64,000 bases of DNA, from the sequence record OR352948.1. One strand, given 5' to 3'. Under the pieces are notes generated by a model that made no database searches, was not told the origin of the DNA, and was given only the letters and a program-made list of their open reading frames with translations. Of this stretch, positions 52,130-52,585 are shown piece by piece; the stretch's first letter is position 1; every line of letters begins with the position of its first letter. Origin of the DNA: Escherichia phage AV118. The position numbers were made by a program, and so were the translations under genes.

Positions 52130-52585
52130 TTATTTTAGATCTTCGGCCCAATCTAGTTTTAAGGGTTCTTTGTATTCACGGTCGAGAATAACCGGAATAG
52201 CTACATCACCACTGAATGATAGTTGGCCAACGTTATATGATAACGTTATATGTGGAGTGTAGTCGTCGAAATCATGAGTAGCACCTAAAGCTCGTGCATA
52301 CTGATGACGACATCTAAGATATTCAGAATCAAGAACTAAAACCAGTACAGCGCCGTCGTCAGTTTTCCATACCTCAAAGTGTCCTGATTCGGCAACAGAA
52401 TAACTACCACTAGATGTAGTATATGGTATGTTTACACGTGAATAACAAATTGTTGAATGAAGCTTTTCACGTGGTACTGGATTAGGAATTCTTAATTTGC
52501 GCTGGAGGTCTTCCAGCGCATCAAGTGTTAATTCCGAAAATTTAGCTGCGACGTAGAGGCCTTGTGAAAAGTCCTCAAATTTCAT
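52130..52585 (-). CDS. 57B: 2H phosphoesterase (57B; Acb1-like cyclic-nucleotide phosphodiesterase)
   Basis: 151 aa; two H-x-T/S-x motifs (HSTI, HITL); position of T4 57B. Confidence 0.75.

Follow-up and report, generated by a model that had tools for sequence, protein, structure and literature searches.

The 57B locus of Escherichia phage AV118 carries a probable Mosigvirus orthologue of the T4 anti-CBASS phosphodiesterase gene acb1

Gene content of the locus

We analyzed a stretch of 64,000 nucleotides from Escherichia phage AV118 (OR352948.1), hereafter the window, which is Mosigvirus DNA (Straboviridae, Tevenvirinae) with ~98% identity to AV115 and mogra. Identity to mogra is 97.6% over 24 kb of the window, and identity to Escherichia phage AV115 is 98.9% over the 2.2 kb around the gene considered here. 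This gene is an intact ORF of 151 amino acids that fills 52130..52585 on the minus strand in the ORF list, with its ATG at 52583-52585 and a TAA stop at 52130-52132. The H-x-[TS]-x pattern occurs only twice in the 151-aa protein, as HSTI and HITL. The gene and its parts are as follows:

52130..52585, minus strand: predicted acb1 (gene 57B) CDS, 151 aa plus stop, assigned from matches to Pfam, T4, and PDB 7T26 and from dN/dS
52448..52459, minus strand: first putative catalytic motif, HSTI, residues 43-46, in which H43 and T45 correspond to T4 H44 and T46
52241..52252, minus strand: second putative catalytic motif, HITL, residues 112-115, in which H112 and T114 correspond to T4 H113 and T115
52133..52156, minus strand: predicted C-terminal lid segment KLDWAEDL K, residues 144-151 (T4 145-152), which contains the stacking residue W146 (T4 W147), as aligned with T4

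The neighboring genes on the same strand are:

52585..52815, minus strand: 57A tail fibre chaperone (Pfam GP57, E = 5.9e-23), adjoining acb1 upstream
52820..53554, minus strand: gene 1, dNMP kinase (Pfam DNMK, E = 2.3e-96)
51741..52052 and 51416..51691, minus strand: internal head protein genes in the slot of T4 ipI (PHROG families, E = 1.9e-38 and 5.7e-49, respectively)

An earlier sequence-only reading of this DNA had given the coordinates (52130..52585) and both motifs exactly as we find them. It had also placed the gene at the 57B position, and the neighborhood agrees: 57A and then gene 1 lie directly upstream on the same strand, and internal head protein genes lie downstream, as in T4. 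The minus-strand order is gene 2 (DNA end protector), 3, 1, 57A, 57B, and the two internal head protein genes, which is also the order in T4, and the 3-1-57A-57B block recurs in six more genera (Straboviridae and T4-like), with phages from Serratia, Acinetobacter, Aeromonas, Cronobacter, Vibrio, and Klebsiella. The TAA stop of 57A and the ATG of acb1 overlap by one base (TAATG), the T4 equivalent being an ATGA overlap, and this arrangement suggests cotranscription and translational coupling of the two genes. Two small plus-strand ORFs (52084..52191 and 52170..52262; 30-35 aa) had no support and were treated as chance occurrences.

The products of the two internal head protein genes begin with MKTYQEFIAE and (MEPK)MKTFNEFISE, which we take to resemble the capsid-targeting sequence of T4 internal proteins. 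The first of them (51741..52052) has 6 of its first 12 residues in common with T4 IPI and nothing beyond. Both products may be injected anti-restriction proteins.

Further downstream, ARAGORN located tRNA-Arg(tct) and tRNA-Met(cat) at 50162..50238 and 50339..50413, both on the minus strand. AV115, the closest relative, has tRNA-Asn(gtt) beside tRNA-Met at a spacing different from that in the window, so that this small tRNA cluster varies between near-identical Mosigvirus genomes. We also searched for the PCR primers published for acb1 of Bas35 (PMC13577387): one matches inside gene 1 with two mismatches, and the other has no match within three mismatches. These mismatches fit a Mosigvirus, not a Tequatrovirus, and are otherwise uninformative.

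Family assignment

The Pfam Acb1 profile (PF23474) covers the protein fully, from profile position 1 to 144 of 144, with a score of 197.3 bits (E = 1.3e-58) against a curated cut-off of 27 bits. The solved structure that it matches best is that of Erwinia phage FBB1 Acb1 (PDB 7T26/7T27, E = 1.1e-58), and T4 57B/Acb1 (NP_049750.1, from NC_000866) is identical at 129 of 151 positions (85%) with no gaps (E = 2e-102). The match to Pfam 2_5_RNA_ligase2 (PF13563) is weak, limited to residues 70-131, and below threshold (15.9 bits against a 27-bit cut-off, E = 0.013). No NCBIfam family was matched, that collection having no Acb1 model, and the PHROG family of the protein, PHROG 755, carries the name "RNA ligase."

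The sequence-only reading had called a 2H phosphoesterase from the two motifs. The family itself holds, through PF23474 and the 63% identity to 7T26/7T27, but the motif pair alone is insufficient to establish it. Two or more HxT/S motifs were found in 6% of 151-aa chunks from the other long ORFs of the window and in 13% of shuffled versions of the protein, and the pair is weak evidence because it arises by chance this often in comparable sequences. The PF23474 match and the 85% identity to T4 57B lie far beyond chance, and it is these two that, as sequence evidence, decide the family. The same reading had connected the gene with the anti-CBASS function of T4 57B, and this connection stands: the protein is the syntenic T4 orthologue, 85% identical and with all nine reported functional residues kept.

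A single-sequence AlphaFold2 model of the protein was unusable (mean pLDDT 39, pTM 0.29), and the fold assignment is for this reason based on sequence identity to a crystal structure. Given 63% identity to 7T26, a compact 2H phosphoesterase fold is practically certain. We conclude that the gene is very probably the Mosigvirus orthologue of T4 acb1 (57B), encoding a small 2H-fold phosphodiesterase directed against CBASS signals. For this allele we infer the activity, the range of substrates, and the action against CBASS, by orthology, from experiments on T4 and FBB1. The gene is an ordinary copy of an established Acb1, already known and with nothing new to it.

Functional residues and conservation

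The functional residues reported for T4 Acb1 are the tetrad H44/T46/H113/T115, the base-stacking residues Y12/W74/F107/W147, and E141, which contacts adenine N6 (Hobbs et al., Nature 2022, PMC9117128). The C-terminal lid comprises residues 145-152, and an H44A/H113A mutant of the T4 enzyme is catalytically dead (PMC9117128). All of the nine reported residues (9/9) are identical in the window protein, where they are Y11, H43, T45, W73, F106, H112, T114, E140, and W146.

We aligned 10 members of the family (the window protein, T4, FBB1, Serratia PS2, Acinetobacter Acj9, an Aeromonas phage, a Cronobacter phage, Vibrio Va3, Klebsiella KP15, and Vibrio phiKT1024). Throughout this alignment, in which identity to the window protein is as low as 28%, the tetrad H43/T45/H112/T114, Y11, and E140 are invariant. 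The KP15 homologue of 57B is annotated with 207 aa (L009 1459..2082) and has a C-terminal extension of ~55 residues past the Acb1 domain that is absent from the other nine aligned sequences.

Comparison of the window gene with that of T4 by the Nei-Gojobori method gave pS = 0.69 and pN = 0.12, hence dN/dS ~0.07 with synonymous sites near saturation, a sign of strong purifying selection. A tblastn search of 50,697 phage records found the protein in 1,469 of them, 1,461 with at least 80% coverage. At least 99% identity was found in 137 phage records (e.g., E. coli O157 typing phage 6 and LF82-41), and 576 records, of the T4-group Tequatrovirus, fall at 80-90%.

Expression signals

The candidate signals around the 57A-acb1 pair are:

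53170..53177, minus strand: TATAAATA box within gene 1, a candidate late promoter of the downstream 57A-acb1 pair
55580..55587 (plus strand) and 55595..55602 (minus strand): further TATAAATA boxes, a divergent pair between genes 4 and 53, at the same relative place as in T4
52081..52107, minus strand: 12-bp hairpin with no U-tract, in the 77-nt spacer after the acb1 stop
52115..52087, minus strand: sigma-70-like site TTTACA-17-TACTAT, preceded by TG and overlapped by the hairpin

We take TATAAATA to be the T4 late-promoter consensus. The octamer occurs 5 times in the whole window against 8.75 expected, a count not above chance, and the boxes therefore matter by their conserved position and not by their number: T4 has a box at the equivalent place inside its gene 1 (L002 7006-7013). 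Co-expression of 57A and acb1, in part from the late promoter inside gene 1, seems likely from this arrangement. In T4 infection, cGAMP-degrading activity appears after ~15 minutes (PMC9117128), an onset with which the candidate promoter inside gene 1 would be compatible.

No canonical intrinsic terminator was found after acb1, where the spacer has instead the hairpin lacking a U-tract. The spacer between acb1 and the internal-protein genes has a minimum free energy of -18.3 kcal/mol (z = -3.5), and the corresponding place in T4 is occupied by a hairpin whose sequence differs (z = -3.8). The hairpin may stabilise a 3' end, serve as a processing site, or be an incidental structure of the promoter region.

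Proposed mechanism and alternative explanations

The T4 orthologue was found as a cGAMP-degrading enzyme by activity-guided fractionation, and its deletion abolishes that activity (PMC9117128). T4 delta-acb1 shows a replication defect of >300-fold on CBASS-carrying E. coli and grows normally otherwise (PMC9117128). In an independent transposon screen (HIDEN-SEQ), 57B/acb1 was dispensable on K-12 and its insertions were depleted on a CBASS host. Nine further Acb1 homologues all cleaved 3'3'-cGAMP and cAAA, T4 Acb1 leaves cGG, cA4, and 3'2'-cGAMP undegraded, and Acb1 blocks activation of the effectors Cap5, Cap4, and CapV in vitro (PMC9117128). The FBB1 enzyme has a compact 2H phosphoesterase fold in the crystal (PMC9117128).

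The mechanism that we propose for the window protein is taken from these T4 and FBB1 experiments and applied by orthology. The phage would make the enzyme during infection, and the enzyme would bind 3'-5'-linked cyclic di- and trinucleotides with at least one adenosine, Y11, W73, F106, and W146 stacking on the bases and E140 reading adenine N6. The C-terminal lid would then close over the ligand, and stacking and lid together would strain the ring and place its scissile phosphate over the H43/T45/H112/T114 tetrad. Cleavage 3' of adenosine, by metal-independent acid-base catalysis, would use the ribose 2'-OH and pass through a 2',3'-cyclic phosphate intermediate, with a linear molecule such as GpAp as the product. 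Loss of the signal would leave CBASS effectors inactive, the cell would not kill itself early, and the phage could finish its cycle.

Could the protein instead be a general 2H enzyme of RNA ends, i.e., a LigT-type 2'-5' RNA ligase or 2',3'-cyclic phosphodiesterase with broken RNA or tRNA as its substrate instead of immune signals? PHROG 755, RefSeq T4, and several phage records do bear the label "RNA ligase," the gene lies near the phage tRNA cluster, and there is the weak PF13563 match (E = 0.013), but at 15.9 bits this match falls short of the 27-bit cut-off and trails the Acb1 score by ~180 bits. The T4 orthologue, moreover, degrades cGAMP, its deletion sensitises T4 to CBASS with no other growth defect, and the ligand-specific residues (the stacking aromatics, E141, and the lid) are kept. 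We rejected the PHROG/RefSeq label on the strength of the sub-threshold PF13563 score and the contrary T4 biochemistry, and consider an RNA-end enzyme very improbable; the label reflects similarity at the level of the superfamily and predates the 2022 work. Decay of the gene is a still fainter prospect. A nonsense-mutated acb1 is found in the related phage Bas43 (PMC13577387), a natural disruption that would make an inactive remnant conceivable here, but the full-length ORF has neither frameshift nor stop, its catalytic and binding residues are intact, and the protein is at least 99% identical in 137 records. The intact ORF together with the low dN/dS (~0.07) excludes decay for practical purposes.

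An Acb1 orthologue might also have its main value or cost outside classical CBASS, either by acting on cA3 of type III CRISPR or by triggering guard systems (type II Panoptes) that sense the loss of cA3. T4 Acb1 cleaves cAAA, and Hobbs et al. raise the possibility that type III CRISPR systems using cA3 could be evaded (PMC9117128). Type II Panoptes restricts Tevenvirinae phages of the BASEL collection whose acb1 is intact, and acb1 is mutated in phages that escape it (PMC13577387); on the other side, type I Panoptes defence was unaffected by deletion of acb1 from T4 (PMC12657218). A cA3-centred role describes one and the same enzymatic activity in relation to a different defence system and offers no competing mechanism. 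Type III CRISPR, to our knowledge, is not common in E. coli, which also speaks against such a role, and we see little chance that it is the principal one.

A second anti-CBASS gene and implications for annotation

The window has a homologue of a second anti-CBASS gene:

38197..38463, minus strand: Acb2 homologue (T4 Vs.4, a cyclic-nucleotide sponge), 88 aa (Pfam Acb2_Tad1_hairpin, E = 4.4e-18; PDB 7UQ2, E = 1e-30)

Its product is 66% identical to T4 Vs.4. In the ORF list the gene starts further upstream, with a TTG at 38631, but the ATG at ~38463 matches the T4 start. With homologues of both Acb1 and Acb2 present, the phage would carry a degrader and a sponge. Tequatrovirus and Mosigvirus genomes have already been catalogued with acb1 and acb2 as characteristic genes (bioRxiv 10.64898/2026.05.06.722914).

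The deposited relatives of the acb1 product are mostly named "hypothetical protein" (GenBank) or "RNA ligase" (PHROG 755, RefSeq), and one listed record is named "cyclic phosphodiesterase." These labels are outdated relative to the 2022 characterization, and the correct label for the family is anti-CBASS phosphodiesterase Acb1. Acb1 having been defined biochemically, structurally, and genetically in 2022, the discovery value of the gene is low and its practical use lies in annotation. For phage therapy and host range, an intact acb1 together with the acb2 homologue predicts resistance to many types of CBASS. The two genes also predict possible sensitivity to Panoptes-type guard systems that sense the loss of cyclic nucleotides.

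Comparison with T4, FBB1, and distant 2H enzymes

T4 Acb1 has one extra N-terminal Met and is otherwise equal in length to the window protein, so that T4 numbers equal window numbers plus one. The two proteins differ by 22 substitutions, none at a reported functional position, and within the lid segment the only change is a conservative one, D to E; at the nucleotide level the two genes are only 75% identical. The genomic slot is also the same: gene 1 and then, directly before it, 57A precede the gene, the stop of 57A overlaps its start, and internal-protein genes follow. In contrast, the internal-protein genes downstream in the window resemble T4 ipI in nothing but the capsid-targeting N-terminus.

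The 22 substitutions may produce quantitative shifts in substrate preference relative to T4 Acb1. A stronger version, that the Mosigvirus allele might cleave signals spared by the T4 enzyme (cGG, 3'2'-cGAMP) or act less on the decoy or guard nucleotides monitored by Panoptes, strikes us as very unlikely: its only support is the existence of two discrete allele classes, and no substitution falls at a reported ligand-contacting residue. If it were true, the two Tevenvirinae alleles (~99-100% and ~85% identical to the window protein) would be functionally distinct answers to host immunity.

FBB1 Acb1, known as apo enzyme (7T26) and with 3'3'-cGAMP (7T27), aligns with the window protein over 140 residues at 63% identity with one gap of a single residue, and its structure is the template for the mechanism proposed above. 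Both HxT motifs, the Y, the E, and the C-terminal W are kept in the two proteins. FBB1 differs from T4 and the window protein in having F at the place of W73/W74 and Y at that of F106/F107, which are conservative aromatic swaps. More distantly, LigT/2'-5' RNA ligase (PF13563) and the distant Acb1 entries 9Q2G/9Q2Y have two HxT/S motifs and, at the superfamily level, the fold in common with the window protein. The matches to PF13563 (E = 0.013) and 9Q2G (E = 0.007) are weak and below family thresholds, and those enzymes act on RNA ends or other nucleotide signals. The window protein is a member of the T4-type Acb1 family proper.
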